Shown here: one piece after another, positions 8,368-31,741 of the stretch
Layout: every line of letters starts with the position of its first letter
Numbering within the stretch: the stretch's first letter is position 1
From: Spirochaetota bacterium
GTDB taxonomy: Bacteria > Spirochaetota > UBA4802 > UBA5550
Direction: 5' to 3'
NCBI GenBank assembly: GCA_016933025.1
Contig: JAFGBT010000015.1
Span: 78,064 to 142,063 of the forward strand
DNA length: 64,000 nt
Program-made: the position numbers and the translations under genes
Notes under the pieces: model-generated
Databases searched by the model: none
Told to the model about the DNA's origin: nothing
Seen by the model: only the letters and a program-made list of their open reading frames with translations

Positions 8368-8432
8368 CCGGGGTCAGAGTAAAATGGGGAGTATTGACAC
8401 CGATAGTTATCGGTTGGCACCGATTACTATCG
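8368..8432. repeat. Composite element: CCGGGGTCAGAGTAA box (8368-8382), TTGACA, dyad motif CCGATAGTTATCGG (8400-8413), then a degenerate second copy caccgattactatcg.
   Basis: Read directly. The same two boxes co-occur at 31691-31741. Confidence 0.6.
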
Positions 8433-8499
8433 TATATTCTTTAATCAAGGAAAGATATAGCCGATATTTTTTATAAGAGAATATGGAGACACGTATGTT

Positions 8500-8895
8500 A
8501 TGATTAGCGCACTCAATTTAAAAGAATTCTCCGAAAAGTTTTCTTATAATGATCACCGAAAACATCTTTTTGATTTGTTCGTGGAAGAACTTGAATCGGT
8601 GAAGAAACAATGCGCCAGGCTGCGTGTCCTGATATTCGGAAGCTATATCACGTCAAAAAAGAAGCCGGGCGATATTGATGTGCTGATATCATTGATCCCG
8701 AACAAGGATTGCGTCTACAGAATCGTAACCAGGGGATTGCAACACAGGCATCCCAGAGAAGTCGATATACACTACTACAAGACCCAGCGGTATATTAAGG
8801 ATGCAGACGGCCTCATCAGGCATTTTAATAAAAATCGGATCAATGAGCTGAAGGGAGTGTCAATCAAAAAGGCGATAGAGATAAAGGATATATGA
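8500..8895 (+). CDS. Nucleotidyltransferase-fold (Pol-beta superfamily) small protein.
   Basis: 131 aa. LIFGSY...PGDIDVLISL matches the GS-x(n)-DxD NTase motif. Lies in an AT-rich segment. Confidence 0.5.
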   Translation: MISALNLKEFSEKFSYNDHRKHLFDLFVEELESVKKQCARLRVLIFGSYITSKKKPGDIDVLISLIPNKDCVYRIVTRGLQHRHPREVDIHYYKTQRYIKDADGLIRHFNKNRINELKGVSIKKAIEIKDI

Positions 8896-8922
8896 CGCGC
8901 TTTTTCGGGGGGAGGGAAACAG

Positions 8923-9750
8923 TCATTTGCCTTTCCGGAATTCCTCTATCGATTTTCCCCTGATGCATTCTGCAAGTTCCCAGACGTAATTATAGAGATG
9001 GAGGCCCTTGGAGACGGCAATGATCTCGCCGTCTTCGACGCCGACTTCCGAAGCGATGTATTCCTTCATCATCTGCATGGCCGCAAGGTTCGCGGGGAAT
9101 CCTCCCCAGAGGTCCCATGACCGGAAATATATGATAAAGTTGAGCCTGCCGTCCTGGATGCGCGTGTCGATGAGACGCAGGCATGGCGGATCAATGAGAA
9201 CCATGTCTGCGGGGTGGGCCACCTGGAGCACCATCTGGTTGTTTCGGTGCCCCCTGTTTTTGTAGGTCCATATGCAGAGCTCCATCTGGTTGATGAAGTA
9301 GCGCCCGCTTTCCTCTATTATTATTTTTCGATTTTCCCATACCTCGCGGTCCTGGATCACGATATCCTCAAGCTCCTTGCTGCTGTAGGTGGTTGGATCT
9401 CCGATATGAATAGGATACCTGCATATCCTCTGGCCGTAGGTATACGACTCGCCCGGCTTTACCTCGCCGGTCATGAGGTACGGGAGATAATCGGTAAGGT
9501 AATCGTCCGCTACCGGGTTCGGGAGGTTGTATTGTCCCGGGATCTGGGGAAGGAGCGGCAGCTCCCCCGGCTTTTTAATGTGAATGGAGATAAAGTCGAA
9601 TTCAAGCCGTTTTTCTCCGGCATATGAACCGCGATCTATCGTAAAATCACGGCCGGATTCGAGACACTTGTAGACCGCCTGAAACCAGGCGTCAGGGAGC
9701 GTGGTGGCTTCGATGAAGATTGGTTTAAGTCCGATGTTTGTAGTGCTCAT
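8923..9750 (-). CDS. Thymidylate synthase family protein (divergent, archaeal-like ThyA).
   Basis: C-terminal half aligns to ThyA: HPADMVLIDPPCLRLID (catalytic Cys), YFRSWDLWGGFPANL, LHLYNY. N-terminal half is divergent. Confidence 0.7.
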   Translation of the reverse strand: MSTTNIGLKPIFIEATTLPDAWFQAVYKCLESGRDFTIDRGSYAGEKRLEFDFISIHIKKPGELPLLPQIPGQYNLPNPVADDYLTDYLPYLMTGEVKPGESYTYGQRICRYPIHIGDPTTYSSKELEDIVIQDREVWENRKIIIEESGRYFINQMELCIWTYKNRGHRNNQMVLQVAHPADMVLIDPPCLRLIDTRIQDGRLNFIIYFRSWDLWGGFPANLAAMQMMKEYIASEVGVEDGEIIAVSKGLHLYNYVWELAECIRGKSIEEFRKGK

Positions 9751-9952
9751 TATATGTTTCCATCATACAAGTATTTTTCCTATTTTGTCTGCGTATTATG
9801 TCTTGTGAATCAATTATCTGTCAAGAACTATGCGCAAGGTTAAAAATAGTACGGCAGTCAGTAAAATGCTTGCCGAAAGTGATGTGTCAGAGCAAGGCTA
9901 AAGGGTGCAGAGCGGACAAACAGGCACCTGAAAACTGGATAAATTATCCGGA

Positions 9953-11221
9953 GTGTATGATTTAATGAGCTATTTCAACAGCGGCACGGTCGAGGCAGTA
10001 CAGCGCTATCTGGAAAGGGGGATGCCCCGTTATCTTGATATCCTGAGCGACATGGTGGCCATTAATTCCTATACCCTGAATACTGCAGGGGTAAATCGCC
10101 TTGCCGCCTACACCGCCGGCGCGTTTAAAGAATTGGGATTTGCCGACGAGCAGATCCGGTCGACTGTCCCTGATTTCGGCAATCATCTGGCGCTGTCCAG
10201 GCCGGGAGGTTCTCCGATAGTTATCGGTTGCGTTTCACATCTTGATACCGTGTTCAGTCCGGAGGAGGAAGAGAGGAATGATTTCCGCTGGCGAGTCGAG
10301 GGGGACAGGGTGTATGGCCCCGGGACCATCGATATAAAGGGGGGCACGGTTGTGATGCTGATGACACTGGAGGCGATCAGGCATGCCGCGCCTGCGGTCT
10401 TCGACAAGGTCAACTGGACCCTTCTTCTGGACGCATCCGAGGAAATGGAATCCGATGACTTTGGTGCGCTCTGCTGCGATAGATTGCGCGCCCCGGCTTC
10501 GAATGGAGATACCCGGGCCTGCCTGGTCTTCGAGGCAGGCCTTTCGAGGGGGGGCAATTTCTACATGGTGGCCTCGCGGAAGGGCCGCGCCGAGTTGCGC
10601 ATAACGGTTGAGGGAAAGGGCGCGCATTCCGGCGTGGCGCACAGGAAGGGCGCCAGTGCCATCACCCAGATGGCCGATGTCGTACAGAGGCTCGAGGCCC
10701 TGACCGATTACGAGAAGGAGCTTACGGTAAACGTAGGAAGGATAGCGGGCGGGTCCCAGATCAATCGCGTCCCCCATTTCGCGGAGGCATTCGCGGAGAT
10801 GCGGGCGTTCGAGCCGGATGTTTTCGAGAAAGCGCTCGCTGACATAACGGCCCTCGACGGCCTTTCCGGCGTTGCCAGCGCTGACGGCGGTTTTTCATGC
10901 AGGACCGGGGTGGAGCTGGTACGCCGCGTGCCGGCGTGGCCGCACAACGAAGCGTCGGGTCGGCTCCTTGCACACTGGCAAGCCGCCGGTGAGCTCCTCG
11001 GCAGCAGGGTAATACTCGAGAAGCGGGGGGGGCTTTCGGACGGCAATTTCACCTGGGAGCAGGTGCCCACCCTTGACGGTCTGGGTCCGTCCGGCGGTAA
11101 TCCTCACTGCTCCGAGCATTCGGCCGACGGATCCAAGGAACAGGAATACGCAGTCGTCTCTTCATTTGTTCCGAAAGCCGTTCTCAACGCCATGGCAATT
11201 ATCAAAATTGCCGGAATGTAA
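9953..11221 (+). CDS. M20 family metallopeptidase (carboxypeptidase G2/ArgE/DapE-like).
   Basis: 422 aa. Motifs HLDTV, GPGTIDIKGG and EEMESDDFGA are typical of M20 peptidases. Confidence 0.8.
   Translation: MYDLMSYFNSGTVEAVQRYLERGMPRYLDILSDMVAINSYTLNTAGVNRLAAYTAGAFKELGFADEQIRSTVPDFGNHLALSRPGGSPIVIGCVSHLDTVFSPEEEERNDFRWRVEGDRVYGPGTIDIKGGTVVMLMTLEAIRHAAPAVFDKVNWTLLLDASEEMESDDFGALCCDRLRAPASNGDTRACLVFEAGLSRGGNFYMVASRKGRAELRITVEGKGAHSGVAHRKGASAITQMADVVQRLEALTDYEKELTVNVGRIAGGSQINRVPHFAEAFAEMRAFEPDVFEKALADITALDGLSGVASADGGFSCRTGVELVRRVPAWPHNEASGRLLAHWQAAGELLGSRVILEKRGGLSDGNFTWEQVPTLDGLGPSGGNPHCSEHSADGSKEQEYAVVSSFVPKAVLNAMAIIKIAGM
10214..10227 (+). repeat. Dyad motif CCGATAGTTATCGG inside the M20 peptidase CDS.
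   Basis: Exact 14-mer. In-frame translation is P-I-V-I-G. Confidence 0.6.
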
Positions 11222-11317
11222 AGAAATAATATCATGCAATTCCCCTCATTTTTTCTTGACGATAGGATTAGTGCGGCCTATTCTGCATGCATCTAATCCT
11301 CGTGCGGAGGCCTTTCT

Positions 11318-13063
11318 ATGAACCTGCTTCTTGTTCTCGGTATTTCAATTGCTCTGCTGCTGATGGGGTATATTTTTTACGGCCGCTTTATTGAAAAGAA
11401 TTTTGACGTTGACGGATCCCATGTGACACCTGCCGTCGAGCTTCAGGACGGCGTCGATTACGTGCCGACACATAAGATAGTCATATTCGGGCATCACTTC
11501 GCCTCCATTGCCGGCGGCGGTCCCATTATAGGGCCCTGCGTCGGCCTGATTTTCGGCTTCATGCCTGTCTGGTTCTGGATACTCTTCGGCACTATCTTTA
11601 TAGGTGCCGTACACGATTACTCCGTGCTCCTGGCTTCGATGCGCGAGAAGGGGAGGTCTATTGCCGAGATCGCGGAAAGGACCCTGGGGCGTACCGGCTT
11701 TCTGCTCTTTATAGGGTTTACCATAATAATGCTCCTTATGGTCACGTCGGTTTTTTTGACTCTCACGACAACCGCGCTCGCCTCAAAATACCCGATTGAA
11801 TTTTTCGGCGCCAATGAACTCGGTATCCGCACCGTGGTGGAGAACGGCGTAACCTACGCGGTCATCGGCGGCATCGCATCGACATCGGTCATTGTCATCA
11901 CCTGCTGCGCTCCTCTCCTGGGATATCTCCTGTACAAGCGTCAAGTCAACGCATGGATCATGGCGCTCATTGCCATAGCCGTTTGCGCCATCTCGATACA
12001 GATCGGATTGATGTTCCCGATAAAAATTGATGCGTTTATATGGATGATTATTCTTTCGGTATACACGATATTCGCGGCAGGCGTGCCGGTCTGGCTTATC
12101 CTCCAGCCCCGGGACTTCACCAACTCGTTTCTCCTGTACGGCGGGGTGACGGGTATGCTCATAGGCGGGATCATTCTCGGCTTCCAGGGAGCGGTGGTCG
12201 AGGCGCCGATGTTTAACCTTGACGTCGGAGCCAAGCACCTCGGGTACGTGTGGCCGGTTCTCTTCATCACCGTGGCATGCGGTGCCATAAGCGGGTTTCA
12301 TTCCCTGGTTGCCGGCGGGACCTCCGCCAAACAGGTGAATTTTGAACGCCCCGATTCGCGGATGGTCGGCTACGGCGGCATGACGATGGAGGCGCTCCTC
12401 GCTGTCGCGGTCATCGTAACTATCGCATGCGGCATCAGTTATGATCAGTTTCGGACAATCGTGTTCCCGGCGGCCGCGGGGGTAAAGGCAAATCCGGTGC
12501 TCGCTTTCGCTCTTGGCGTTGGCGGATTGCTCAATCGAGCGGTCGGCCTTCCGATCATATACGGTTCGGTCTTCGGCATCCTGATGGTCGAGGGCTTTGT
12601 CGTCACCACCCTGGACACGGCGGTACGGCTCAACCGGTATCTCTTCGAGGAGCTGTGGCGCATGATATTCAAGAAGGTTCCGAGGATTTTGAAAACCTAC
12701 CTTTTCAACTCGGGCCTCTGCGTCGTCCTGATGTTCATTCTGGCATACTTCAACGCATTCAAGCAGCTCTGGAACCTTTTCGGGGCGGCAAATCAGCTTC
12801 TCGCCGCTCTTGCATTGATTACGGTGAGTGTCTGGCTCCTTAAAAAGGGGAAGAGGTATCTGTTTACCATGGTGCCGGGTCTGTTTATGCTGGTTACGAC
12901 CATCGCCGCACTCGTCGTTATTCTGGTAAAGCAATATATTCCGAAGCATAACTGGATGCTTTCCTTCGGCGATGTTGTTCTCCTCTGCCTGTCGATTGGC
13001 GTTATAGTCCTCAGTTTTAAACAGTTTATGTTGAATAGAAAAGCAAGGGGTGCTGCTTCATAG
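11318..13063 (+). CDS. cstA: Carbon starvation protein A.
   Basis: 581-aa polytopic protein. N-terminus GHHFASIAGGGPIIGP is the CstA signature. Confidence 0.9.
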   Translation: MNLLLVLGISIALLLMGYIFYGRFIEKNFDVDGSHVTPAVELQDGVDYVPTHKIVIFGHHFASIAGGGPIIGPCVGLIFGFMPVWFWILFGTIFIGAVHDYSVLLASMREKGRSIAEIAERTLGRTGFLLFIGFTIIMLLMVTSVFLTLTTTALASKYPIEFFGANELGIRTVVENGVTYAVIGGIASTSVIVITCCAPLLGYLLYKRQVNAWIMALIAIAVCAISIQIGLMFPIKIDAFIWMIILSVYTIFAAGVPVWLILQPRDFTNSFLLYGGVTGMLIGGIILGFQGAVVEAPMFNLDVGAKHLGYVWPVLFITVACGAISGFHSLVAGGTSAKQVNFERPDSRMVGYGGMTMEALLAVAVIVTIACGISYDQFRTIVFPAAAGVKANPVLAFALGVGGLLNRAVGLPIIYGSVFGILMVEGFVVTTLDTAVRLNRYLFEELWRMIFKKVPRILKTYLFNSGLCVVLMFILAYFNAFKQLWNLFGAANQLLAALALITVSVWLLKKGKRYLFTMVPGLFMLVTTIAALVVILVKQYIPKHNWMLSFGDVVLLCLSIGVIVLSFKQFMLNRKARGAAS

Positions 13064-13093
13064 CGTAGCCTTGGCTGAAAAGTGAATTATTAT

Positions 13094-13137
13094 GAAGGGC
13101 CTCTTGTTTCACTGACGAACGAGAGGCCCTTTTACTG
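13094..13137 (+). terminator. Rho-independent terminator after cstA.
   Basis: GGGCCTCT / AGAGGCCC 8-bp stem followed by a TTTT run. Confidence 0.5.
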
Positions 13138-13245
13138 CATTGTTGCTCTGGCATTGAAGGGGAAACAGAGAGAAAAAATATTTGACGCCAATTATCCAGA
13201 AATAATCTGCATGTGATAAAACATTAAAAAATATGAAGGGTCGTT

Positions 13246-14148
13246 ATGAAGCTACATGCCTCCGGTAAAATTCACGAGAGAATCCACGTGGCCGCCAATC
13301 TCGCATATCCCGCGTATATTATCAAAGGCGATTCCAAAAACGCGATGATCGAAGGTGGCTTCAATCTGCTCGGTCCGCTGTATCTTAAATCCGTTGACGA
13401 GATTCTGGGAGACCGGAACAGTCTTTCCTATATATTCATAACTCATTCCCATTATGATCACCTCGGCGCGGTCCAGTATTTGAAGCGCCATATCCCCCGG
13501 GTCAGCGTTGCCGCCCATGAGCGCGTCGGCGGTTTGTTGAGAAAGGAGTCCGCCCTTGCGTTGATGAACCGCCTGAGCGAAAATCAGCGTATACTGTTCA
13601 AGGACATTGCCGGCGACGAGGATCTCACGATCAGGCCGATGGATATTGACCTTCCGCTTGCGGAGGGCGACTCGTTTGACCTCGGCGGCCTTGTCTGCAC
13701 GGTTCTGGAGGTGCCGGGGCATACGAGGGATTCCCTCGCTTTTTACATCCCGGAGTTGAAGGCGCTCTTTCCGGGCGAGGCCGCGGGCGTTCCGCAGGGC
13801 CTCGACGGCAATGAGCCGCAGGTGGAGTTTCTGGCCTCATACGAGGATTATCTCGCATCTCTCGAAAAAATGATTGCTCTGACCCCTGAGATGCTCTGCA
13901 TCGGTCACGGCTGGGTGCTCACCGGCACTGACGCCTCCGAGTTTCTCCGTAAATCCTACGAGGCCACATTCGAGTATCGTAAACTGATCGAGCGTTATCT
14001 GGACGGCGCCGACGGCGACGTTGAATCGGCCATTCAGTCAATTGCCCGCGTTGAATACGATGAGAAGGGGACCATCTTCCAGGAGAGAAACGCCTATCTC
14101 ACCAACCTCGCTGCGCAGGTCAAACATATCGCGGGACTTAAGAATTGA
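13246..14148 (+). CDS. MBL-fold metallo-hydrolase.
   Basis: 300 aa. ITHSHYDHLGA (HxHxDH metal-binding motif). Confidence 0.8.
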   Translation: MKLHASGKIHERIHVAANLAYPAYIIKGDSKNAMIEGGFNLLGPLYLKSVDEILGDRNSLSYIFITHSHYDHLGAVQYLKRHIPRVSVAAHERVGGLLRKESALALMNRLSENQRILFKDIAGDEDLTIRPMDIDLPLAEGDSFDLGGLVCTVLEVPGHTRDSLAFYIPELKALFPGEAAGVPQGLDGNEPQVEFLASYEDYLASLEKMIALTPEMLCIGHGWVLTGTDASEFLRKSYEATFEYRKLIERYLDGADGDVESAIQSIARVEYDEKGTIFQERNAYLTNLAAQVKHIAGLKN

Positions 14149-14157
14149 TTGCGCCGG

Positions 14158-14538
14158 CTATTTTTCCCGGCGTGTACGGGTAAACTGGCAGATGATATTC
14201 TTGTTTGGAGAGGTCAGGGTGACGATAAGCCTGTTCTTGTTGTCCGCCAGGGCATAGGTATACCCGTAGCGCTCATGTCCCTTCAGGTTGCGGAAATCGA
14301 GCATGTCCCCGTTTATCCTCCCGACGAGCTCGGCAATAGACCACTCGCCATTGACGAGCTGCCATGAGATCCTGAATTTATTGTGGCGGATTTTTTTTAT
14401 TTCGATGGCCTTGCCGCACCAGGGGTTCCTGATGGATGGGATTTTCTCGTATGATCCGCTAAAGTCGGCCGCGAATGTCAGTCCCCAGAGGGCGGCTGAT
14501 ATGAAGATAATGATTATGATAATCCCGCATTTTTTCAT
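14158..14538 (-). CDS. Hypothetical secreted protein.
   Basis: 126 aa. N-terminal signal peptide MKKCGIIIIIIFISAALWGLTFA. No recognisable domain. Confidence 0.45.
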   Translation of the reverse strand: MKKCGIIIIIIFISAALWGLTFAADFSGSYEKIPSIRNPWCGKAIEIKKIRHNKFRISWQLVNGEWSIAELVGRINGDMLDFRNLKGHERYGYTYALADNKNRLIVTLTSPNKNIICQFTRTRREK

Positions 14539-14621
14539 GGCAACCCCTTGCTCGCCGATGTTAATATCCAGCGTCGACCGGTATTCCTGTCAAGGACGTG
14601 GAAATCCGGGAAAAAGTATTT

Positions 14622-15347
14622 TCATATATGCGCATGTGCCGTCAGCCTTCCGATATCGATAATCGTTGCGTATACCATCAGCCCGATTATGATAATCCAG
14701 CAGGCCGCCATCAGAGGCACATAGGCCGCGCGGAGCCGAACGCTGATTTTTTCAAGAACGCAGAGGAGCACCTTCCCGCCGTCGAGAACCGGCAGCGGTA
14801 TGAGGTTGAAAACCGCCAGGTTCGCGCTCAGGATGAGGGCAAGGCGCGCGGTTCGCGACGGATCGTCTCCGATAAATACGCTCCCCTGATGAAGAATGCC
14901 GACGATGCCAGATACCTTGTCGGGTTCCTTAAAGAAGCCGGACAGCGCTGACAGGATGTTCCCGGCGAGCAGCCACGTCTGGCGGAACGGCTCCACGAAC
15001 GCCCCGTTGAGCGTAAACCCGTCTTGCGCGGTATTCAGCGATGCGAAGAGGAGGAGCACCAGTATGAAATTTGCCGTCGGGCCTCCGAGCGCAAACAAGG
15101 CCCGCCTGTGAGCCGGGATCCGGAAGTATTCCTCCTGGTCGCGGATTGCAGGGAGAACATATCCTCCCAGTGGTACCATGGATAACCGGAATTCGGTAAC
15201 TCCGATCTTCTTTTTCCATAGTGCGGGCCCGTATCCGACTGAAAAAACCTCGATCGGGATTCCGGCCTGCCTGGCCGCCATATAATGTCCCAGTTCATGC
15301 AGCAGTATCAGCGCGCTGATGATGCAGATGACGATGAAATAATTCAT
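14622..15347 (-). CDS. Site-2 protease family (M50) zinc metalloprotease.
   Basis: 241-aa membrane protein. HELGHY (HExxH) in the first TM segment, plus an LDGG motif. Confidence 0.75.
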   Translation of the reverse strand: MNYFIVICIISALILLHELGHYMAARQAGIPIEVFSVGYGPALWKKKIGVTEFRLSMVPLGGYVLPAIRDQEEYFRIPAHRRALFALGGPTANFILVLLLFASLNTAQDGFTLNGAFVEPFRQTWLLAGNILSALSGFFKEPDKVSGIVGILHQGSVFIGDDPSRTARLALILSANLAVFNLIPLPVLDGGKVLLCVLEKISVRLRAAYVPLMAACWIIIIGLMVYATIIDIGRLTAHAHI

Positions 15348-15455
15348 TATTCCCCCCGGCCGCTGAGCGTTTCGTTATAAGAAATGACGGCCGGTAAATT
15401 TGTTACAAAAATAGCGATGGTCGGACCACGCCGCTCTGGGTCCAAACCGGTGCCG

Positions 15456-17003: not shown

Positions 17004-17017
17004 GAATGGTTATTTGA

Positions 17018-17503: not shown

Positions 17504-17517
17504 CAGATAGTTATCCG
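17504..17517. repeat. Degenerate copy (12/14) of the dyad motif (cagatagttatccg) in the divergent LCCL/moxR promoter region.
   Basis: Read directly. Confidence 0.45.
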
Positions 17518-22559: not shown

Positions 22560-23626
22560 GTATGGCGGCCCCGGAGGCGCGTTCCCGTGAACGCGCCTCC
22601 GGGGCCGCGGTAAAAGGCATACGGATGATCCAATTCGGCAACTATACATATCTGGTCTACATCGTTTCGGTTTCTGCGGTGGTGATGGCGCTGTATGCCG
22701 CCTATCTCCTCTGGAAACGGCATGCGGTGGCGCTTATGCAGAGGGGCGTCGCGCGCGACCACCTGATCAGGGGCTCGCAGACTGTGGGGAAGATCAAAAG
22801 TGTCCTTATGGCCGTCTCAATCGCACTGTGCGCTCTGCTTCTTCTCAGGCCCCAGTGGGGCGAGCAGGTCAGGGAGGTTCACAGCGAGGGCTCCGATGTC
22901 CTCATCGCCCTGGATGTGAGTCCCAGCATGCTCGCGCAGGACGTTAAGCCGAGCAGGCTGCAGCACGCCAAGGACGCGGTGCGCTGGCTCGTGGAGTCGC
23001 TCAAAGGCGACCGGGTCGGGCTTGTGCTTTTTTCCGGCGACGCGTTTCTCCAGTGCCCTCTCACCAACGACTACGGCGCCTTCATGATGTTCCTGGACGC
23101 GGCGTCGCCCGACTCCATACATCTCAAGGGGACCGACATCGGCATGGCCCTGCGTCAGGCCTACCGCGTTTTCAAGGACAAGCGCCTTACCTCGCGAATG
23201 CTGGTGATCATAACCGATGGTGAAGATCACGAGGGCACGGCGGAGGAAGCGGCGAAGATGTTCCGCAAAATGGACGTGGCGGTCTACACGGTAGGCATCG
23301 GGACGGGGTCCGGTGAGGTGATCCCTGCGACGGGCGACGACGAGACCGCCGATAATTATTACCGCGACGGCTCGGGGAAGCTGATAAAGACAAGAAAAGA
23401 CGCCTCGTTTTTAAAGAGAATCGCGGGTCTAACTCGCGGCGCTTACATCGACATATCGGGGAGTTTTTCCGATCTCAGCTTCATTATCGGCATCATCAAT
23501 GACCAGCGCCGCAACGAATACGGATCCCGGATTATTAAGGAACCCCGCGAGCATTATCAGATTTTCACCCTCCTCTTGATCATGCTCCTTTCGCTCGAGC
23601 TGATGCTTCCTGAGCGGAAATGGTGA
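22556..23626 (+). CDS. batB: vWA-domain aerotolerance protein BatB.
   Basis: Paralogous to BatA. vWA MIDAS motif DVSPSM. C-terminal TM helix. The true start may be the internal Met at 22625. Confidence 0.8.
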   Translation: MSMAAPEARSRERASGAAVKGIRMIQFGNYTYLVYIVSVSAVVMALYAAYLLWKRHAVALMQRGVARDHLIRGSQTVGKIKSVLMAVSIALCALLLLRPQWGEQVREVHSEGSDVLIALDVSPSMLAQDVKPSRLQHAKDAVRWLVESLKGDRVGLVLFSGDAFLQCPLTNDYGAFMMFLDAASPDSIHLKGTDIGMALRQAYRVFKDKRLTSRMLVIITDGEDHEGTAEEAAKMFRKMDVAVYTVGIGTGSGEVIPATGDDETADNYYRDGSGKLIKTRKDASFLKRIAGLTRGAYIDISGSFSDLSFIIGIINDQRRNEYGSRIIKEPREHYQIFTLLLIMLLSLELMLPERKW

Positions 23627-23820
23627 TGCGCGCCGACCGTCCTGCCGGTCGGTTTCAATCGATCTATTAAGCACGTTTCTGATATCAGAAACCAGCCGGT
23701 TTCTGGGTGATAAAAATCATTGACACCCCTTGGCGACAATCCAAATCTTCAGTATTATTTTTTCAGGCAGTAAAGAGCGATGCTTGGCATCATGTTAGGA
23801 GGGAGCAATATAACAGGTGT

Positions 23821-24762
23821 ATGAAGAATGAAATATGCAGAGTACTGCTGGTGACTGACAATGTGGCCATGGTCACGGCGATAACCGGGTTCCTTGATGG
23901 AGAGAGGTTTTCCATCTCGACCTGTCCGGGCAGCAACAGGATCATCAGGATTGTCTCCTTGATGCTCGAGAAGGAGCGGTTTGACGCGGTCATCATCGAT
24001 ATGGTCGCCCTGATATACGCCGGGAACGAGCTTCTCAAGGAAGTGAGGAAGGCTGCTATGCGTCCGGCGGTCATCCTGATTACCGGCAACAGCGCGGCGG
24101 CGATGGCAATGGATTACATCAACAGGGGGGTGAGCGATATCCTCACCCGCCCGGTCAATCGCGACCACCTTCTGATGGTGCTGAATAGGGTCATGGAACG
24201 CAAACAGATGCTGGCGGAGGCGCAGGAGCGCGAGCCGTACCGGCAGACCCGGCTCGTTGACAGCCTTACCGGCCTCTATAACAGGAGTTATTTCCGGGAG
24301 CGGGTCGAGCAGGAGATCTCCTTCTCTCGCAGAAAGAAGGGGAAGTTTTCGGTCATCTTCATGGAGATACACAACCTGAAAAAAATTAATGATGATTTCG
24401 GCAGAGAGGCCGGCGACGATCTTCTGAAGAGCGTGTCGGCGAACATCCAGGAATTGTGCCGCGATTGCGATACCATCGCCCGCTGCGGCGGCGACGAGTT
24501 TGGGATTATTCTGCCGGACGCCTCATCTGAAACGGTGCAATCGGTCGCCGGGCGCATCCTGGGGGCGGTTTTGTCCGGACGGTACCTCTGCATCAACAAC
24601 GGCCCGGTCGCCGCCTCCATCGGCATATCGTCTTTCCCGAAGCATGCCGAGGAGCCGCGGGAGTTGCTCAGAAAGGCTGACCGTGCCCTCACACACAGCA
24701 GGGAATCCGGGAGCAATCGGTACACACTCTATATCAGCGAATTAAACGGCCATCCCGCATAG
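23821..24762 (+). CDS. Response-regulator receiver + GGDEF diguanylate cyclase.
   Basis: REC-like N-terminus. C-terminal GGDEF domain (RCGGDEFGIIL, LTGLYNRSYF). Confidence 0.8.
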   Translation: MKNEICRVLLVTDNVAMVTAITGFLDGERFSISTCPGSNRIIRIVSLMLEKERFDAVIIDMVALIYAGNELLKEVRKAAMRPAVILITGNSAAAMAMDYINRGVSDILTRPVNRDHLLMVLNRVMERKQMLAEAQEREPYRQTRLVDSLTGLYNRSYFRERVEQEISFSRRKKGKFSVIFMEIHNLKKINDDFGREAGDDLLKSVSANIQELCRDCDTIARCGGDEFGIILPDASSETVQSVAGRILGAVLSGRYLCINNGPVAASIGISSFPKHAEEPRELLRKADRALTHSRESGSNRYTLYISELNGHPA

Positions 24763-24835
24763 GCCCGCGTAACTTTTTTGCTTGCGCGAAACACATATCT
24801 TCTATCAGTATTACTCCAGTGACAGGTAATTGAGA

Positions 24836-25020
24836 ATGGGGCTGTCTCGCATCCCCCCTAAATCCCCCGAAGGGGGACTTTAAAGAATTAAGAACTGAAA
24901 AGCCCCCCTCTGGGGGGTGGGGGGTGTCGCAAGCTATATTTAGGACAGTCCCGTGTCATGGCGAGCGCACCCTTCGACTCCGCTCAGGGTAAACTCCGTC
25001 GAGGCAGGCGACGCCATCTT
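24836..25020. repeat. Intergenic repeat: poly-C/G hairpins (CCCCCGAAGGGGG, CCCCCCTCTGGGGGG), then a REP-like unit gtcatggcgagcgcacccttcgactccgctcagggtaaactccgtcgaggca.
   Basis: Related units at 41205-41370 and 56150-56240 share the ccttcgac...gctcagg(g/a)taaactccgtcgaggca core. Confidence 0.55.
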
Positions 25021-25035
25021 GATTGGGAATAAAAC

Positions 25036-25716
25036 ATGATTGCAAGAAAAATATTGATGTTTTCAGTATTGATCCTTTCGGTGTTTTCCATCGCGTGGCT
25101 CGATCCCTACCGTGACGCCGTCTCCAGCGGCAATGATGAATACGGCAGTAAGAAATACAACAATGCAAAGCGGTATTATGAAAAGGCTGAAAAATATGCG
25201 CCGGCTGAGGACGATAAGAAAAAGCTCTCCCTGAATATGGCCGACGCGGATTTCATGCTTGAAGATTACGACGGCGCCATTGCTGGCTTCCAGAGGGCGA
25301 TTCAATCTGACGACCGGGAGGTGCAAAAGAAAGCCTTTTTCAACACCGGGAATGCCTACCTCAAGCAGGGAAATTACCGTGAGGCGATTAATGCATATGT
25401 AAACGCCCTTAAAATCGATCCAAATTATGATAAGGCAAAGAAGAATATCGAGTATATCCTCAAGCATATGAATAACAAGGATAACAAGAGGGATAATAAA
25501 GATAATAAAGATAAAGACAAGAGGAAGGACTCAGATAAATCACAGCAAAACAAGAAGCAGGACCCGAAACGGCAGCAGGGGAAGGACCGGCAGCAGGCCG
25601 ACAACCAGATGAACAGGGAGCAGATTCAGAACATTCTCCGTTCCCTTCAGCAGAGCCCTGTTCGTCGCCAGAAAGGGAGCAGCGGCGAGAGGAGGAAGCT
25701 TGAGAAATTCTGGTAA
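25036..25716 (+). CDS. batC: TPR-repeat aerotolerance protein BatC.
   Basis: Signal anchor. TPR motifs (GNAYLKQGNYREAINAY). Lys/Asp-rich C-terminal tail typical of BatC. Confidence 0.7.
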   Translation: MIARKILMFSVLILSVFSIAWLDPYRDAVSSGNDEYGSKKYNNAKRYYEKAEKYAPAEDDKKKLSLNMADADFMLEDYDGAIAGFQRAIQSDDREVQKKAFFNTGNAYLKQGNYREAINAYVNALKIDPNYDKAKKNIEYILKHMNNKDNKRDNKDNKDKDKRKDSDKSQQNKKQDPKRQQGKDRQQADNQMNREQIQNILRSLQQSPVRRQKGSSGERRKLEKFW

Positions 25717-27340
25717 GATAGTTCTCTCCGCGTTGTTGGCGATCGGTCTCGCAATGCCGATGTCCGCGGCACAGCTTGAGACCGACATCGACGACGTGTC
25801 GATTGAGGCGGGCGGCACGACAACGCTCAGGGTCCGACTCTCGGGCGACCCGGCCGACGTCAAGACCCTGAAATTCCCCTCCGTCCCCGGGCTCCGGATT
25901 GAGTATTCCGGGATGGAGAGAAGCTTTGAGTACATCAACGGCAAGTCGTGGTCCGGTGCCAAACTCCTCTTCACCATCACCGGCCTGAAGCGGGGGACCT
26001 ACCGAATTCCCTCCTTTGTGTTCCAGCGCGGCAAGGAGCGGATGCAATCCCGCGAAGTGAGCCTTACCGTAACGGCGGGAGGAGAGGACGGCACGACCGC
26101 TGTGGCGGATGTCAAGAGCGCGGTGGAGCTCTCTTCTGCCAGCGCCTATGTCGGGCAGCCGGTGATCATGCGCTATTACATTATGACCGCCGGCCTCCGC
26201 GCCGCGGTGAACCAGTTTAACGATTACCCTGACACCAAGGGATTCGCCATAAAGACCATCGACGATCCCGCCCACGAGGAACGGCGCATTCGCGAGGGCG
26301 ACTACGAGAAGGCGCACCTTGTGACCTTTGCGCTTATACCGGCGGGTCCGGGAAATTATCGTGTCGGCGGCGGGTCCGCCGTACTGACGGTTGAGGCCCC
26401 GGCGCGCCGCCGTGGCGGGCCGGACTTTTTCGGCATGAATTTTCCCGGCTTCACCCGCCGGCAGGTCCTCGAGTTCGAGACCAGGCCGCTCGCCATTCTC
26501 CCCCTGCCGGCGGCGGGCAGGCCCGATAATTTCCAGGGCGATATCGGCTCATTCAGCATCAGGGCCGATGTGCCCGACGGCGAGATCACGGTGTTCGAGG
26601 AAAAGAAGATCGCCGTGACAGTGGAGGGTGCCGGGAACCTGGCGACCATGACGAAGCCGGTCCTCGAGCGCGAGGTCCCCGGGCTCAAGGTCATAGCCGA
26701 GGAGGGAGAATCCTCCATCAGTATCGAGGGCGGAAGGCTCCGCGGAAGCAAAAAGTTTACTTATACCCTCATTCCCGAGAAGGCGGGCGAGGTGAAGGCG
26801 GGCCGGCTCAGGCTATCCTTTTTCAATCCTGACAGCGGCCGGTACGAGACAGCAGAAACGAAAGAGATAGCGTTTGTGGCGAAGGGAGACGGCACGCGCC
26901 AGGGAGTCCGATTTGACGATGACGCCGAGAAGAAGATAGACCTGAATCCTCTCTATTTTGTCCTCATTGCCTTGGCCCTGGCGGGGGCCATAGCCTTCGT
27001 AACCTTCTGGGAGCGGAGGAGGTTTCGCATGGTCGCCCACGGAACGGATGCACAGGCCGGCAGGGAAGATCATCCCGAAGTTTTCCAGGGGCGGGACTAC
27101 ATCGCCGAAGCCGGCAGATGCGCTGAGCGGAACGACAGGGACGGCTTCCTGGGGTCGGCGGAGAAAGCCCTTGACCAGATAAAGAAGGGCTACGGCGATG
27201 CGGTCTCGGAGGGCGCCGGAGCCGCCATCGCGCGCGCCAAGGATGAAATTTACGGGTACCGGTTCGGCCGCGGCGCCATCTCACCTGCCGATATGAAGCG
27301 CCTTCTTGAAGAGATTGTGCGACTTAAAGCATCCCGGTAG
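25700..27340 (+). CDS. batD: Oxygen-tolerance protein BatD.
   Basis: 546 aa. Signal peptide. BatD-like N-terminal domain. TM helix near residue 420. Confidence 0.75.
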   Translation: MRNSGKIVLSALLAIGLAMPMSAAQLETDIDDVSIEAGGTTTLRVRLSGDPADVKTLKFPSVPGLRIEYSGMERSFEYINGKSWSGAKLLFTITGLKRGTYRIPSFVFQRGKERMQSREVSLTVTAGGEDGTTAVADVKSAVELSSASAYVGQPVIMRYYIMTAGLRAAVNQFNDYPDTKGFAIKTIDDPAHEERRIREGDYEKAHLVTFALIPAGPGNYRVGGGSAVLTVEAPARRRGGPDFFGMNFPGFTRRQVLEFETRPLAILPLPAAGRPDNFQGDIGSFSIRADVPDGEITVFEEKKIAVTVEGAGNLATMTKPVLEREVPGLKVIAEEGESSISIEGGRLRGSKKFTYTLIPEKAGEVKAGRLRLSFFNPDSGRYETAETKEIAFVAKGDGTRQGVRFDDDAEKKIDLNPLYFVLIALALAGAIAFVTFWERRRFRMVAHGTDAQAGREDHPEVFQGRDYIAEAGRCAERNDRDGFLGSAEKALDQIKKGYGDAVSEGAGAAIARAKDEIYGYRFGRGAISPADMKRLLEEIVRLKASR

Positions 27341-27348
27341 AGGCGAGG

Positions 27349-28131
27349 TCATACATGTTTTTTCGATTCCTGCCAGAGCCTCTCCATTTCATCGATTGTC
27401 ATCTCTTCCAGGTTTTTCCCGATTTCGTTCGCCCGTTTTTCGATATACTTGAACCGTGCTGTGAACTTGTCGATCGTTTTCATCAGGGCGTCTTCCGGGT
27501 TGATGTTCATGAAGCGGAGAAGGTTGGCGATGCTGAAGAGAATGTCTCCGGCCTCCTCGGCGGCCTGCTCCCTGTTCGGTGACGCGATTGCGGCCTTGAG
27601 CTCGGCCACCTCCTCGTCCAGCTTCGCCGATACGTCCTCGATGCGCTCCCAGTCGAAGCCGACACGTGATGCCCGCTGCTGTATCCGGTAGGCCTTGAGG
27701 AGGGACGGCATATGCCTGGGTACGCCGTCGAGCAGCGACTCGCGGCCGGGCTTTTCCTCTTTCTTGATTTTTTCCCATTGCTCGACGACCTGGTCCGATT
27801 CAGCCAGGCGTTCGCCTCCGAACACGTGGGGGTGCCTCAGGATGATCTTGTCGATAATAGACTGCGCCACGTCGTCGATGGTGAAGTCCCCCCGCTCCCG
27901 CGCTATCTCCGCGTGCAGGTATATCTGCAGCAGTACATCGCCCATTTCTTCCTTTACATGGGCCGGATCGCCGCTCTCTATGGCGTCAAGCGCCTCGTAC
28001 GCCTCCTCGATGAGATAGGGCCTCAGCGAATCGTGGGTCTGTTTTCGGTCCCAGGGGCAGCCGTTCTCGGCCCTGAGGGCTGCGACGATCTCGGCGAACC
28101 GGTAGAGGGGGCGTGTTTCCTTGAATTTCAT
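27349..28131 (-). CDS. mazG: Nucleoside triphosphate pyrophosphohydrolase MazG.
   Basis: 260 aa. Tandem MazG EExxE motifs (LIEEAYE, VAELKAA) and GCPWDRKQTH. Confidence 0.85.
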   Translation of the reverse strand: MKFKETRPLYRFAEIVAALRAENGCPWDRKQTHDSLRPYLIEEAYEALDAIESGDPAHVKEEMGDVLLQIYLHAEIARERGDFTIDDVAQSIIDKIILRHPHVFGGERLAESDQVVEQWEKIKKEEKPGRESLLDGVPRHMPSLLKAYRIQQRASRVGFDWERIEDVSAKLDEEVAELKAAIASPNREQAAEEAGDILFSIANLLRFMNINPEDALMKTIDKFTARFKYIEKRANEIGKNLEEMTIDEMERLWQESKKHV

Positions 28132-28347
28132 GGCGCGTCTGCTCCGTTACAGTTTGCAGATACGATGCTTCATCGCTTCTGCCGGAGTCAATACCTTTTC
28201 GGGCGCCGTGATGGCGGGGGATTGCCCGACCGGGCCTTTGCGTTGATAAGGGCCTCATATGCACTTAACTCTTGACAGGATAGTACTTGTTGGTTAGCCT
28301 ACCATCTCCGGTCGGGCCCCGGCCGGATTAGTGACGGGGAGTCGCAG

Positions 28348-28629
28348 ATGCAACGCGAAATCATTTATGACACTCTCGAGACGTTCCTCGGTGCGCTCAG
28401 GGAGAATTCCATCAGCAAGATAGCCTTCGGCGAGACCAGCGAGAAGCGAGCTTTGGAGGTGGAACCGGGGAAACTCCAGATCGTTCACGTGGAGCGTGTC
28501 GATCTGCTCGGCTACCGCGATTCGGCAATATACAAGTGCGTCCTGAAAGACGTTGATCGCGATGCCCTTGCTGATCGTTTGACCGCTGAAGGATTCGAGG
28601 TCACGCGGCGGAGCAGGAACATCACCTGA
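28348..28629 (+). CDS. Hypothetical protein.
   Basis: 93-aa ORF with plausible codon usage. No recognisable domain. Confidence 0.4.
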   Translation: MQREIIYDTLETFLGALRENSISKIAFGETSEKRALEVEPGKLQIVHVERVDLLGYRDSAIYKCVLKDVDRDALADRLTAEGFEVTRRSRNIT

Positions 28630-28638
28630 GGAAGGGCC

Positions 28639-29604
28639 ATGGCGGCGTTACTGGAAGTCAAAAACCTGTGTGTCCGGTTCCCCCAGTCGGAGGGGGATGT
28701 TCTCGCGGTGCGGGACGTTTCGTTCTCCCTCCAGAGGGGCCGGACCCTTGGTTTCGTGGGGGAATCCGGGTGCGGCAAGTCGGTCACCGCGTATTCGGTC
28801 CTCCGTCTCGTTCCCCCGCCGGGGGTGATTGACGCCGGCGCGATATCCTACCAGGGGCGCGATATCATCGGCATGGACGACGAAGAGATCAGGAAGGTGC
28901 GGGGGAAGGAGATCGCCATGATCTTCCAGGAGCCGATGACCTCGCTCAATCCCGTGTTCACCGTGGGGTACCAGATTGCGGAGAACATTATCCTCCACCT
29001 GGGGATGCGGAAGCGGGAGGCGAGAGAGTATTCGGTCGAGTTGCTCAACAGCGTGGGCATACCCGACCCCGCGGACCGGTTCAATTCATATCCCCATGAG
29101 CTGTCCGGCGGCATGCGCCAGCGGGCGATGATCGCCATGGCGCTTTCAACGTCGCCGTCAGTACTGATCGCCGACGAGCCTACCACGGCGCTTGACGTCA
29201 CCATACAGGCCCAGATACTCGATCTTCTTCTCAGGCTTCAGGCGGAGCGGCGCATGTCGCTCCTCCTTATCACCCATGATCTCGGGATTGTGGCGAATAT
29301 CGCGGATGAAATCGCGATCATGTACGCCGGGGAGATCGTTGAATTCGGGAAAACACGGGACATCTTCAGGAAGCCGGGACATCCCTACACGCGCGGCCTC
29401 TTTCGTGCGATCCCGCGCATAGGGAGGAAGAAGGCGGAACTCAGGACAATCCCCGGGACAGTTCCCTCCATGACGGCTGTGCCCGCCGGGTGCGTTTTCT
29501 CACCCCGGTGCGACAGCAGGATCGCTCGGTGCGACCGGTCGCCTGTCGGGCTGTCGCGCCGCAAGGGCCGCGCCGTCCGGTGCATTCGCTATAAGGCGAA
29601 TTGA
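28639..29604 (+). CDS. ABC transporter ATP-binding protein (OppD/DppD oligopeptide type).
   Basis: Walker A GESGCGKS. Signature LSGGMRQR. Walker B LLIADEPTTALD. C-terminal oligopeptide-ABC extension. Confidence 0.85.
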   Translation: MAALLEVKNLCVRFPQSEGDVLAVRDVSFSLQRGRTLGFVGESGCGKSVTAYSVLRLVPPPGVIDAGAISYQGRDIIGMDDEEIRKVRGKEIAMIFQEPMTSLNPVFTVGYQIAENIILHLGMRKREAREYSVELLNSVGIPDPADRFNSYPHELSGGMRQRAMIAMALSTSPSVLIADEPTTALDVTIQAQILDLLLRLQAERRMSLLLITHDLGIVANIADEIAIMYAGEIVEFGKTRDIFRKPGHPYTRGLFRAIPRIGRKKAELRTIPGTVPSMTAVPAGCVFSPRCDSRIARCDRSPVGLSRRKGRAVRCIRYKAN

Positions 29605-29605
29605 A

Positions 29606-29851
29606 TTAGCTGAGTTCCTCCAGCCGCGCGGCGAAGCTTTCCACGTTCATTTTCCGGTTCTCACTAAGCATGAGATAGATTTCCTCGGCTATCACGGAGG
29701 CGATCATCTCCTTGGCGGAGGCCTCATCGTGGCCATTTTCAAGGAGCCGATCAAAGGCGGCTTTGGTTACCGGCGGATCGTTGTCCCTGATCTGCGTCTC
29801 CACCGACTGGATTACGATTTTATGTAGATTGAAATCGTCTTCGATATTCAT
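29606..29851 (-). CDS. Hypothetical small protein.
   Basis: 81-aa ORF from MNIEDD. No recognisable domain. Confidence 0.35.
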   Translation of the reverse strand: MNIEDDFNLHKIVIQSVETQIRDNDPPVTKAAFDRLLENGHDEASAKEMIASVIAEEIYLMLSENRKMNVESFAARLEELS

Positions 29852-30073
29852 CGCATGTCCCCCCACGCGTTTTGTACTTCATGCTTTCTGCCGGGCCACG
29901 GCTGTTCGCTGCCCCGAGGTAATCATTCTACAGTAATGCAGAATTATTACAAGAAAAATTCCATCCTGAAATACATGAGTTTTTATCGTCAGTAATGATC
30001 TATTTTTACCGATTTTTTGAGCAGCGAGCCCCGTTGTAGGGCGGAAGAGGCGCGGGGCCGGTAGGGCCGTTAT

Positions 30074-31588
30074 TCACACGTCGTAGTTCCGCTGGAGGTT
30101 CTTGTAGGACAGGGCCTCGAGTATATGGTTTTTCCTGATGGTGCCCCCGCCCGCGAGGTCCGCGATGGTGCGCGCGGTTTTCAGTATTTTGAAAAACGAG
30201 CGGGCCGTAAGGGCGGTGCGCATGACAGCGGCCTCCAGCACCGCCTCGGCGTCAGCGTCAAGCCGGCAGTGGTCTCGGATCTCCCCGGGCGTCATCCGGG
30301 AATTGTAGCGCGTCGCGCTCTCGTCGAACCGATTTTTCTGCCTTTCCCGCGCGGTTTTCACACGCTCAAGTATAGCCGCTGATTTCTCGCAGGAATGAAC
30401 CTCGAGAAGGTCCCGGTGGGGGACCCTCCCCACCAGCACCTCGATGTCGATCCGGTCAAGGATGGGGCCCGCGATCTTCTGGAAGTGGCTCCTCACCTGG
30501 TGCGGCGGGCAGACGCAGGGGATCTCGCCGTCGAAGAGATAGCCGCACCGGCACGGGTTGCTCGCCGCCACCAGCATGAAGTCAGCCGGGAACCGGAACG
30601 TACCGAGGGCGCGCGATACCGTTATCTCGTAGTCCTCGAGGGGCTGGCGGAGCGCCTGGATTACGTTGTTTTTAAATTCCACGAATTCGTCCAAAAAGAG
30701 GACACCATTGTGCGACAGTGAGACCTCGCCTACAGTGGGGAACGTTCCCCCGCCGGCGAGGGCCACGTCGGAAGAGGTGTGGTGCGGCGAACGGAAGGGT
30801 GGATGTGTGATAAGGCCACCCCCTGATTTGAGTTCACCGCCCACACTGTGTATCATCGTGGTTTCGATTGCCTGCTCTTTTCCGAGCGGCGGCAGGATCG
30901 AGGGTATCCGCTTGGCCAGCATGGTCTTTCCCGATCCGGGCGAACCGTACAGGAGGATGTTGTGGTGCCCGGCGGCGGCTATCTCAATGGCTCGCTTGGC
31001 CGTCTCCTGCCCCCTGACATCGGAAAAATCCGGGCCGGCGTGGGGGTCATCACATTCCCTGCCGTCGCGGAACGGACCGAACTCACCCCGAAGCACCGAC
31101 AGAGTCTCGGCGAGTGTTTTGACCGGGAAGACCTCGATCTCCCGTATTGCCGCGGCCTCATGCCGGTTTTCGTACGGCACGATAACGGAGCGGTATCCGC
31201 CGCGGTAGATGGCAATCGTCATCGATATGACGCCTCGCACCGGCTTGACCCGTCCGTCAAGTGAAAGCTCGCCCACCATCGGTATGGCCGCCGGGTCGAT
31301 GCCGGCCTGACCCGTTGCGTGCAGAATCGACATGGCGACCGGCAGGTCGTAGGTGGCCCCCTGTTTCTTGAAGCCGGCCGGGGCCAGGTTGACCACGAAG
31401 TTGCGCGGCGGGAACTCAAACCCCGAGTTCTCTATGGCGGACCTGATCCGTTCGCGGGATTCGCGGATGGTCGAGTCCGGGAGGCCCACAATCGTGAACC
31501 CCGGGAGCCCGCGTATGATGTCGACCTCCACCTCGATAATTCTGGCGTCTATGCCGTGGATCCCGAATGAGATTGATTTGGAGAGCAC
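30074..31588 (-). CDS. YifB/ComM family Mg-chelatase-like AAA+ ATPase.
   Basis: 504 aa. N-terminal Lon-protease-like domain. Walker A GSPGSGKT, Walker B VLFLDE. Confidence 0.9.
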   Translation of the reverse strand: MLSKSISFGIHGIDARIIEVEVDIIRGLPGFTIVGLPDSTIRESRERIRSAIENSGFEFPPRNFVVNLAPAGFKKQGATYDLPVAMSILHATGQAGIDPAAIPMVGELSLDGRVKPVRGVISMTIAIYRGGYRSVIVPYENRHEAAAIREIEVFPVKTLAETLSVLRGEFGPFRDGRECDDPHAGPDFSDVRGQETAKRAIEIAAAGHHNILLYGSPGSGKTMLAKRIPSILPPLGKEQAIETTMIHSVGGELKSGGGLITHPPFRSPHHTSSDVALAGGGTFPTVGEVSLSHNGVLFLDEFVEFKNNVIQALRQPLEDYEITVSRALGTFRFPADFMLVAASNPCRCGYLFDGEIPCVCPPHQVRSHFQKIAGPILDRIDIEVLVGRVPHRDLLEVHSCEKSAAILERVKTARERQKNRFDESATRYNSRMTPGEIRDHCRLDADAEAVLEAAVMRTALTARSFFKILKTARTIADLAGGGTIRKNHILEALSYKNLQRNYDV

Positions 31589-31690
31589 AGGTGTTACCTC
31601 CGGGTTTGTTTGATGGCCCCGGAGGATATACGAACGGGCGTGAGAGATAGTAAAAAAATTTTTTCCAGACCGGGTAATTTTTGATTTAAC

Positions 31691-31741
31691 CCGGGGTCAG
31701 AGTAACGGGTTCCCGATAGTTATCGGTTACTCTGACCCCGG
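31691..31741. repeat. 51-bp nested inverted repeat: CCGGGGTCAGAGTAAC, spacer gggtt, dyad motif CCGATAGTTATCGG (31713-31726), then GTTACTCTGACCCCGG.
   Basis: Arms are exact reverse complements, read directly. Shares the CCGGGGTCAGAGTAA box with 8368-8382. Confidence 0.65.

Follow-up and report, generated by a model that had tools for sequence, protein, structure and literature searches.

Composite intergenic repeats in a Spirochaetota genome: a probable REP-type hairpin bearing a putative protein-binding dyad

Results

The 51-bp Hairpin and the Composite Locus at 8368

Two intergenic loci were examined in a 64,000-nucleotide stretch (hereafter the window) of contig JAFGBT010000015.1 from the Spirochaetota bacterium assembly GCA_016933025.1, at each of which a 15-nt box, CCGGGGTCAGAGTAA, lies beside a palindromic motif, the dyad CCGATAGTTATCGG. 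At positions 31691-31741 these two words build a 51-bp hairpin with perfect 16-bp arms and the dyad at its apex (Table 1), in agreement with the stem-loop-capable inverted repeat with a central dyad that was described in an initial annotation made from the sequence alone. That annotation correctly placed a spacer between the left arm and the dyad but read it as gggtt; the actual spacer is GGGTTC, one base longer, because the G shared by the dyad and the right arm had been counted twice. The genomic context, a gap between comM/yifB and a hydrolase gene, was also given correctly, with the correction that both genes are encoded on the reverse strand, so that the hairpin lies 5 nt past the hydrolase stop codon and 103 nt ahead of the comM start. 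The hydrolase matches P0295, a protein of a metagenome-assembled genome (MAG) named "Spirochaetes bacterium," at 100% identity, and the closest ComM homologues are 84-85% identical, with several at 64-83% identity named as Spirochaetota or Spirochaetes MAG proteins. An identical 51-bp element is present in L223, an independent assembly from this species, so that an assembly artefact is excluded.

Folding of the element, which the initial annotation had proposed, yielded very stable structures on both strands (RNA: -35.6 and -33.7 kcal/mol, z approximately -6; DNA: -20.6 kcal/mol, with z over the RNA and DNA folds of approximately -6 to -7). No T-run or U-tract was found on either strand of the hairpin, and a terminator scan of 31550-31800 returned zero terminator-like sites; sigma-70 promoter and terminator scans likewise returned nothing at the 8368 or 31691 loci. 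Rfam 15 covariance models gave no match at the gathering threshold anywhere in the window, and at either locus no match even at E<=1. The trinucleotide AAC is present on both flanks of 31691-31741. The target-site duplications that the initial annotation had suggested looking for are not consistent: no such duplication recurs around the other full copies (L126, L131, and the gammaproteobacterial copies described below). GTAG and CGTC tags are absent from both ends of the box and of the element.

The second locus, 8368-8433, comprises in order a box, 11 nt, TTGACA (8394-8399), a dyad (8400-8413), 6 nt, and a degenerate dyad. All parts reported by the initial annotation at 8368-8432 are thus present, including the nucleotidyltransferase-fold gene downstream, which encodes a DUF6932 protein with a weak match to the pol-beta palm. 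The TTGACA at 8394 is not convincingly a -35 hexamer, as the promoter scan placed no sigma-70 site there. Comparison with the repeat units of a metagenomic contig, L132 (...CTTCTGACCCGATAG...), indicates that 8394-8401 is possibly a decayed right arm.

Table 1. Coordinates of box, dyad, hairpin, and gene features in the window.
Feature	Position	Strand	Remarks
Two box-free dyads	2800-2834	.	Upstream of RACo promoter; one position conserved in relatives L122 and L123
Solo box CCGGGGTCAGAGTAA, left-arm type	8368-8382	+	Exact match
TTGACACC	8394-8401	+	Possibly decayed right arm (cf. CTGACCCC) fused to dyad as in L132 units
Exact dyad	8400-8413	+	
Degenerate dyad, CCGATTACTATCGT on + / ACGATAGTAATCGG on -	8420-8433	-	Two mismatches
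DUF6932 (nucleotidyltransferase-fold) gene	8500-8895	+	Downstream of the 8368 composite; weak pol-beta-palm match
Box-free exact dyad	10214-10227	+	Within M20 peptidase coding sequence
Box variant GGGGTCAGAGCAA	13874-13888	-	Within metallo-beta-lactamase-fold gene; membership uncertain, chance about 0.08
comM/yifB Mg-chelatase-like ATPase gene	30074-31588	-	Start 103 nt downstream of hairpin
Left hairpin arm CCGGGGTCAGAGTAAC	31691-31706	+	REP-class foot; 3' arm on the transcribed (-) strand
Unpaired spacer GGGTTC (asymmetric bulge)	31707-31712	+	Differs in orthologue L222
Dyad CCGATAGTTATCGG, apical 5-bp stem and 4-nt loop	31713-31726	+	14/14 kept in L222
Right hairpin arm GTTACTCTGACCCCGG, perfect complement of left arm	31726-31741	+	G31726 common to arm and dyad
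Alpha/beta hydrolase gene	31747-32682	-	Stop codon 5 nt before hairpin in transcription sense
Box-free exact dyad	62142-62155	+	Within aroA coding sequence

Box and Dyad Pairing Beyond the Window

The probability that two random loci would both fall within 40 nt of a dyad locus is approximately 3e-4. A metagenome scan with the pattern GGGGTCAGAGTAA-N(0-30)-CCGATARYTATCGG (26 specified positions) identified 12 further contigs with a box, a gap, and a dyad, representing about eight distinct sequences, against approximately 0.007 expected. Three of the contigs (L126, L129, and L137) encode proteins annotated as Spirochaetota. The scan contigs carry additional composites for which they had not been selected (L137:11342-11441 and second units in L129 and L130), and L132:1496-1636 contains a tandem array with a period of 42 and 3.3 copies, each consisting of a dyad and a short box hairpin; this array lies 36 nt past one gene and about 50 nt ahead of a cupin gene. 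In L039, a Spirochaetota MAG from the box-only scan, the box is followed after 11 nt by a degenerate dyad. Altogether, the pairing recurs at about 10 independent Spirochaetota-type loci in inverted, direct, and tandem forms. These contigs, the unselected composites, and the conservation at an orthologous spacer described below bear out the proposal that two co-occurrences in the window reflect a modular unit, and mere coincidence does not account for the pairing.

The arrangement of the two words is variable. A box, a dyad, and an inverted box are found at window 31691, L126, and L131, direct box-dyad repeats in L129, L130, and L137b, and a solo box at window 8368. Box-dyad gaps cluster at 7-9 and 22-25 nt, with others of 0, 11, 15, 17, and 21 nt, and the orientation of the dyad relative to the box is not fixed. 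Five composites (window 31691, L134, L137a, L130, and L126) begin 0-12 nt past a stop codon. The genes downstream are unrelated, encoding a cupin, a CAAX protease, ORF6N, a Glt symporter, DUF6932, and ComM, and a shared downstream gene family was rejected on account of these heterogeneous neighbours. Tandem ORF6N (KilA-N/Rha-like) genes adjoin the composite in L126:8893-10117 and L131:446-1450; an ORF6N association was also discarded, as both cases mark one orthologous locus and ORF6N is absent from the window.

Conservation in Relatives

In a relative whose hydrolase is 73% identical (L222), the hydrolase-comM spacer holds the element at the same place, with 12/13 positions of the left arm and 14/14 of the dyad retained, a right arm with one inserted base, and an unrelated inner spacer. 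A second dyad follows 50 nt later, ahead of a conserved stretch that resembles a comM promoter. The outline of the fold is kept but weakened (-23 kcal/mol, z -1.5), and no compensatory changes were found in L222, where the substitutions break stem pairs. In the orthologous pair L126/L131, the dyad plus TAAAGGTTTT is conserved at 24/24 positions, compared with 13/21 in the spacer. Conservation in L222 and L126/L131 indicates that the element is old, vertically inherited, and constrained in sequence, the dyad most strongly. Neither box nor dyad was found in L225, a distant hydrolase homologue (51% identical) with different synteny.

The Dyad as an Independent Motif

The dyad is a perfect 6+2+6 palindrome, and the motif is slightly asymmetric (...TATCGGT). 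Exact copies occur at 2821(-), 8400, 10214, 31713, 56046, and 62142, and degenerate ones at 2800, 8420, 17504, 39462, 45608, and 54506. Strand-matches in the window number 24, compared with 6.5 expected, a count that was reached in none of 100 shuffles. Dyad loci are four to six times commoner than box loci in the window (12 versus 2-3). In 854 kb of gammaproteobacterial DNA that carries the box, the motif is all but missing, which indicates that it is specific to the Spirochaetota lineage. The dyads at 2800/2821, 8400/8420, 17504, 31713, 45608, and 56046 are apparently located 60-135 nt upstream of start codons. The copy at 10214 was first grouped with these (seven loci in all) and then placed within the M20 peptidase coding sequence. 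The RACo promoter beside the conserved dyad position (Table 1) reads TTGACA-N17-TACTAT.

The initial annotation regarded motif-only copies as solo remnants of the composite. This is not supported: being more abundant than the box, limited to one lineage, conserved alone at the RACo promoter, and also present within genes, the dyad is an independent motif and not composite debris. The exact dyads in the M20 peptidase and aroA coding sequences suggest selection on the DNA word itself. Its two-fold symmetry, together with 14/14 conservation beside diverged spacers, is most simply explained by a putative site for a dimeric DNA-binding protein.

Several further observations concern the dyad. The copy in the M20 peptidase encodes PIVIG directly before the HLDTV metal-binding motif, with use of the rare ATA codon. 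A 22-nt unit, CGGGTTC followed by the dyad and T, occurs at 31706-31727 and 54499-54520 (20/22 alike), the latter within the final 25 codons of a 5'-nucleotidase open reading frame (ORF), and this common 22-mer indicates that some dyad copies spread as larger units. Three Spirochaetota MAG loci (L039:2235, L120:424, and L124:152) conserve a variant dyad inside a longer palindrome, TTTTTATAACGAT[A/T]GTTATCGGTATT, which lies in AT-rich sequence and adjoins a small gene. Near the RACo dyads, a near-perfect palindrome of 22+22 nt at 2701-2744 (AACTATATTACTATATCAAGAT / ATATTGATATAGTAATATAGTT) overlaps the RACo -10 (TACTAT) and the transcribed leader and is almost invariant in L122 and L123; it is probably an operator or leader structure of this corrinoid-activation gene.

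The Box in the Window and in Gammaproteobacteria

Exact boxes are located at 8368-8382(+), 31691-31705(+), and 31727-31741(-), and both good box loci of the window are intergenic. With up to three mismatches, six matches were found, compared with 1.49 expected, and six was reached in none of 100 shuffles. The 8.8 kb past the right end of the window in the same species contain no additional box or dyad.

A scan of genome contigs with the box 15-mer returned at least 119 loci, with about 1100 chance matches expected in 596 Gb. Solo matches in unrelated taxa resemble the chance expectation. Among the matches listed, an inverted partner, TTACTCTGACCCC, lies within 140 nt in 95 of 135 box occurrences, in which the same 13-15-mer forms the foot of a hairpin of gammaproteobacterial type. 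The paired matches are nearly all from uncultured Gammaproteobacteria, including sponge and coral symbionts, Lysobacterales, Halieaceae, and others. Most of these copies lie in short intergenic gaps, and the hairpins are placed between 25 convergent, 38 tandem, and 14 divergent gene pairs. Their density reaches up to four hairpins per 8 kb and 0.45 arms per kb at loci chosen for carrying the box. The foot is constant and the apex is a lineage-specific palindrome, with interiors between the arms of 0-111 nt and unrelated sequence. DNA folds of the 31691 element and of a gammaproteobacterial copy (L001) are alike, each with a 15-bp foot, a 5'-side bulge, a 5-6-bp apical stem, and a 4-nt loop.

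Two gammaproteobacterial loci (L048 and L018) encode a Y1_Tnp protein of 220-230 aa (PF01797, E 1e-11 to 1e-13), whose top NCBIfam hit, REP_Tyr_transpos, scores 65-69 bits against a cutoff of 80. Both genes lie between box arms, with left arms on the upstream side and right arms on the downstream side. Independently fetched homologues in L220 and L221 (about 70% identical), with PF01797 matches in the same E range, are bracketed by a one-base variant, GGGGTCAGTGTAA / TTACACTGACCCC. The repeat therefore brackets a Y1/IS200-like gene of the type found with repetitive extragenic palindromic (REP) sequences, that is, of REP-associated tyrosine transposase (RAYT) type, in all four gammaproteobacterial loci examined. 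Bracketing of a Y1 gene by a repeat is the defining REP-RAYT arrangement (PMC2817692; PMC5581495). From these sequence features, we regard the box as the predicted conserved foot of a REP-type hairpin class with the consensus GGGGTCAGAG[T/C]AA.

The Y1_Tnp clade (about 230 aa; L048:159-857, L018:4011-4682, L220:3001-3696, and L221:3001-3687), with flanks GGGGTCAG[A/T]GTAA, may be an undescribed REP-RAYT family. Public records call these proteins only "transposase," and one Joint Genome Institute record names a homologue as a REP-associated tyrosine transposase. A scan of viral contigs gave 80 single box matches, none with an inverted partner or dyad, which is the chance level. A literature search for the box sequence matched only papers with mouse quantitative PCR primers, and none of the REP papers searched contains it.

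Other Repeats in the Window

Two pairs of 43-nt direct repeats with 79% identity were identified (24982-25024 / 41335-41377 and 55200-55242 / 56235-56277). The second pair flanks a long intergenic region, 55922-56451, that also holds the dyad at 56046 and, at 56352, a word resembling the box. At 22565-22608, where two forward-strand ORFs meet, lies an inverted repeat with perfect 20-bp arms and a loop of 4 nt (GCGGCCCCGGAGGCGCGTTC/GAACGCGCCTCCGGGGCCGC).

Discussion

A Mosaic Repeat of Two Modules

We lean, with modest confidence, toward interpreting the composite as a REP-type hairpin whose apex or flank bears a lineage-specific protein-binding dyad, similar to the bacterial interspersed mosaic elements (BIMEs) of Escherichia coli, in particular the repetitive IHF-binding palindromic (RIP) element. 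It would thus be a mosaic extragenic repeat of two modules with different histories: the box, a REP foot, and the dyad, a palindrome of the Spirochaetota lineage, CCGATAGTTATCGG(T). At 31691-31741 the box arms would form the 16-bp stem, with the dyad stem-loop placed where gammaproteobacterial copies hold their own apical palindrome. At 8368 only the left arm would survive, perhaps with a decayed right arm, beside two dyads. A RAYT-type HUH enzyme may have produced the copies from hairpins in single-stranded DNA, as the gammaproteobacterial loci suggest. Retained copies might then serve as intergenic punctuation, in which the stem transcribed past the hydrolase stop codon would protect or terminate the hydrolase mRNA and the dyad would attract a regulatory or nucleoid protein to a position immediately ahead of the comM promoter, comparable with the site for integration host factor (IHF) in RIP/BIME-1.

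Among the three options raised by the initial annotation, a small non-autonomous mobile element comes closest, because the arms are identical to repeats bracketing Y1-transposase-like genes in Gammaproteobacteria; the kind of element is nevertheless REP/RAYT and not a classical miniature inverted-repeat transposable element (MITE), given the lack of target-site duplication and the variable interior.

Several points weigh against a REP-type origin. Searches by tblastn and with a clade-specific hidden Markov model identified no RAYT or Y1 gene in the window or across about 230 kb of DNA from the Spirochaetota lineage, and the best 120 database homologues of the gammaproteobacterial RAYT carry only gammaproteobacterial names where an organism is given. 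Two REP superfamilies have been described, with GTAG and CGTC tags (PMC3733652), and the element has neither tag. The box is scarce here, with two good loci (three arms) in 64 kb plus 8.8 kb, unlike the gammaproteobacterial density, and many of the copies in Spirochaetota, being solo boxes or direct repeats, are unable to form a hairpin by themselves. In L222 it is the sequence of the arms that is conserved, and a protein-binding operator would account for this just as well; the proposed roles in mRNA 3' protection and protein recruitment are putative.

A more far-reaching version of this interpretation, which we consider speculative and unlikely, is that a RAYT-associated REP class (foot GGGGTCAG[A/T]GTAA) is shared across phyla, that the Spirochaetota hairpin captured the operator of a lineage-specific global DNA-binding protein, that REP dispersal spread or insulates such sites, and that the resulting regulon wiring is under purifying selection at orthologous loci.

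Alternative Explanations

If box and dyad were instead the sites of two regulators, or of one two-domain regulator, their co-occurrence would mark co-regulated promoters. Such a complex operator is consistent with the dyads apparently upstream of start codons (seven before 10214 was reassigned), with the conserved dyad position upstream of the RACo promoter, with the retention of arms and dyad in L222 without compensatory changes, and with the second L222 dyad ahead of the comM promoter-like stretch. We nevertheless regard it as rather unlikely, since the box is identical to a repeat bracketing RAYT-type genes in another phylum, box-dyad gaps vary, dyad orientation is not fixed, several copies abut stop codons, the downstream genes are unrelated, and exact dyads are also intragenic. 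The hairpin might also act primarily at the RNA level, as a terminator, a stabiliser of the 3' untranslated region, or a small structured RNA, with the sequence repeats being secondary. Its very stable fold on both strands, its position 5 nt past the hydrolase stop codon and before the comM promoter region, and the persistence of the overall hairpin layout in L222 fit this explanation. It appears improbable because the element has neither a U-tract nor a terminator call, has no Rfam match even at E<=1, and in L222 carries substitutions that weaken the stem; moreover, other copies lie in divergent promoter regions or consist of solo and direct boxes that cannot fold, and the orientation of the dyad relative to transcription is mixed. 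The structured RNA envisaged by the initial annotation is disfavoured on the same grounds, namely the missing Rfam match and U-tract and the orthologue changes that break pairs.

A classical MITE, that is, a miniature element mobilised by a DDE transposase with the box as its terminal inverted repeats, would match the small size, the perfect 16-bp terminal inverted repeats, and the AAC on both sides of 31691-31741. This explanation is largely refuted and has very little probability left, as L126, L131, and the gammaproteobacterial copies show no consistent flanking duplication, the interior of 0-111 nt with unrelated sequence leaves no conserved body, the associated gene, where seen, encodes a Y1/HUH enzyme and not a DDE transposase, and the viral scan produced only chance single matches. 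The consensus of sigma-28 (FliA) promoters is TAAA-N15-GCCGATAA, and in 8379-8406, which reads TAAA-N15-ACCGATAG, the TAAA of the box could be taken as a -35 and the CCGATA of the dyad as a -10. TAAA occurs at 15-17 nt in four of 38 dyad strand-sites (8379-8406 and three other composites), compared with about 0.45 expected. A sigma-28-type promoter is nonetheless hardly credible as the general explanation, since only the composites with long gaps fit it (the gaps of 7-9 nt in the 31691 element and in most composites are incompatible), the strict two-fold symmetry of the dyad is left unexplained, and the genes downstream are not flagellar or chemotaxis genes.

Significance

REP and BIME repeats have been well studied in enterobacteria and pseudomonads but hardly in Spirochaetota. 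A foot shared across phyla is unusual because a REP sequence is normally confined to one lineage and evolves together with its RAYT; it points to horizontal transfer of RAYT-REP systems or to an unusually constrained recognition sequence. A separately evolving, strongly conserved palindrome in the hairpin apex offers a testable example in which a repeat and a probable protein-binding site are joined. In terms of annotation, two odd intergenic structures would be explained by ordinary repeat biology, and neither by a new RNA nor by a new class of mobile element.

Comparison with Known Systems

The closest known systems are REP sequences and REPINs with their RAYTs (Nunvar 2010, PMC2817692; Bertels & Rainey 2011, PMC3116915; Bertels 2017, PMC5581495). 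Like these, the element described here belongs to short, hairpin-forming extragenic palindromes (about 20-60 nt) that are single, inverted, or clustered; the same repeat brackets a single-copy Y1/IS200-like gene, for the box in the four gammaproteobacterial loci, and copies are often vertically inherited at orthologous sites. It differs in lacking a GTAG or CGTC terminal tag, although untagged REP-like families have been acknowledged (PMC3733652). Other differences are a 13-nt foot common to Gammaproteobacteria and a Spirochaetota lineage, where REPs are usually specific to a species or genus, a low copy density in the DNA scanned here with no RAYT seen in the approximately 230 kb of Spirochaetota DNA, and Y1 proteins that score below the NCBIfam REP_Tyr_transpos cutoff (65-69 versus 80 bits).

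Some systems share a single aspect with the composite. Neisseria DNA uptake sequences (DUS) are short words present in excess, frequently as inverted pairs directly behind genes, and Correia elements are small repeats with protein-binding sites or promoters. The composite resembles them in its over-represented words, its inverted pairs past genes, and its small size with protein-binding-type sites. In contrast to DUS, its density is much lower and there is no sign of an uptake function; unlike Correia elements, it has neither a TA duplication nor a Correia-like conserved body. A Rho-independent terminator likewise places a GC-rich stem immediately past a stop codon, but neither strand here carries a U-tract, and this stem sequence is found again at unrelated loci as well as in other phyla.

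In the E. coli BIME-1/RIP (RIB) arrangement, two inverted REPs flank an IHF-binding motif. The composite is similar in that a REP-type pair surrounds a distinct, separately conserved motif (window 31691-31741, L222, and L126/L131) and in its tandem and mixed arrangements. Between the arms here lies a perfect 6+2+6 palindrome, a putative protein-binding site but not one for IHF, which is far commoner alone than in the mosaic and occurs also in promoters and coding DNA. BIMEs have been summarised previously (PMC2817692). The kind of element represented by REP/RAYT and BIME systems is well known, and what is new is an untagged foot shared between Gammaproteobacteria and Spirochaetota, together with a nested dyad that is separately conserved.

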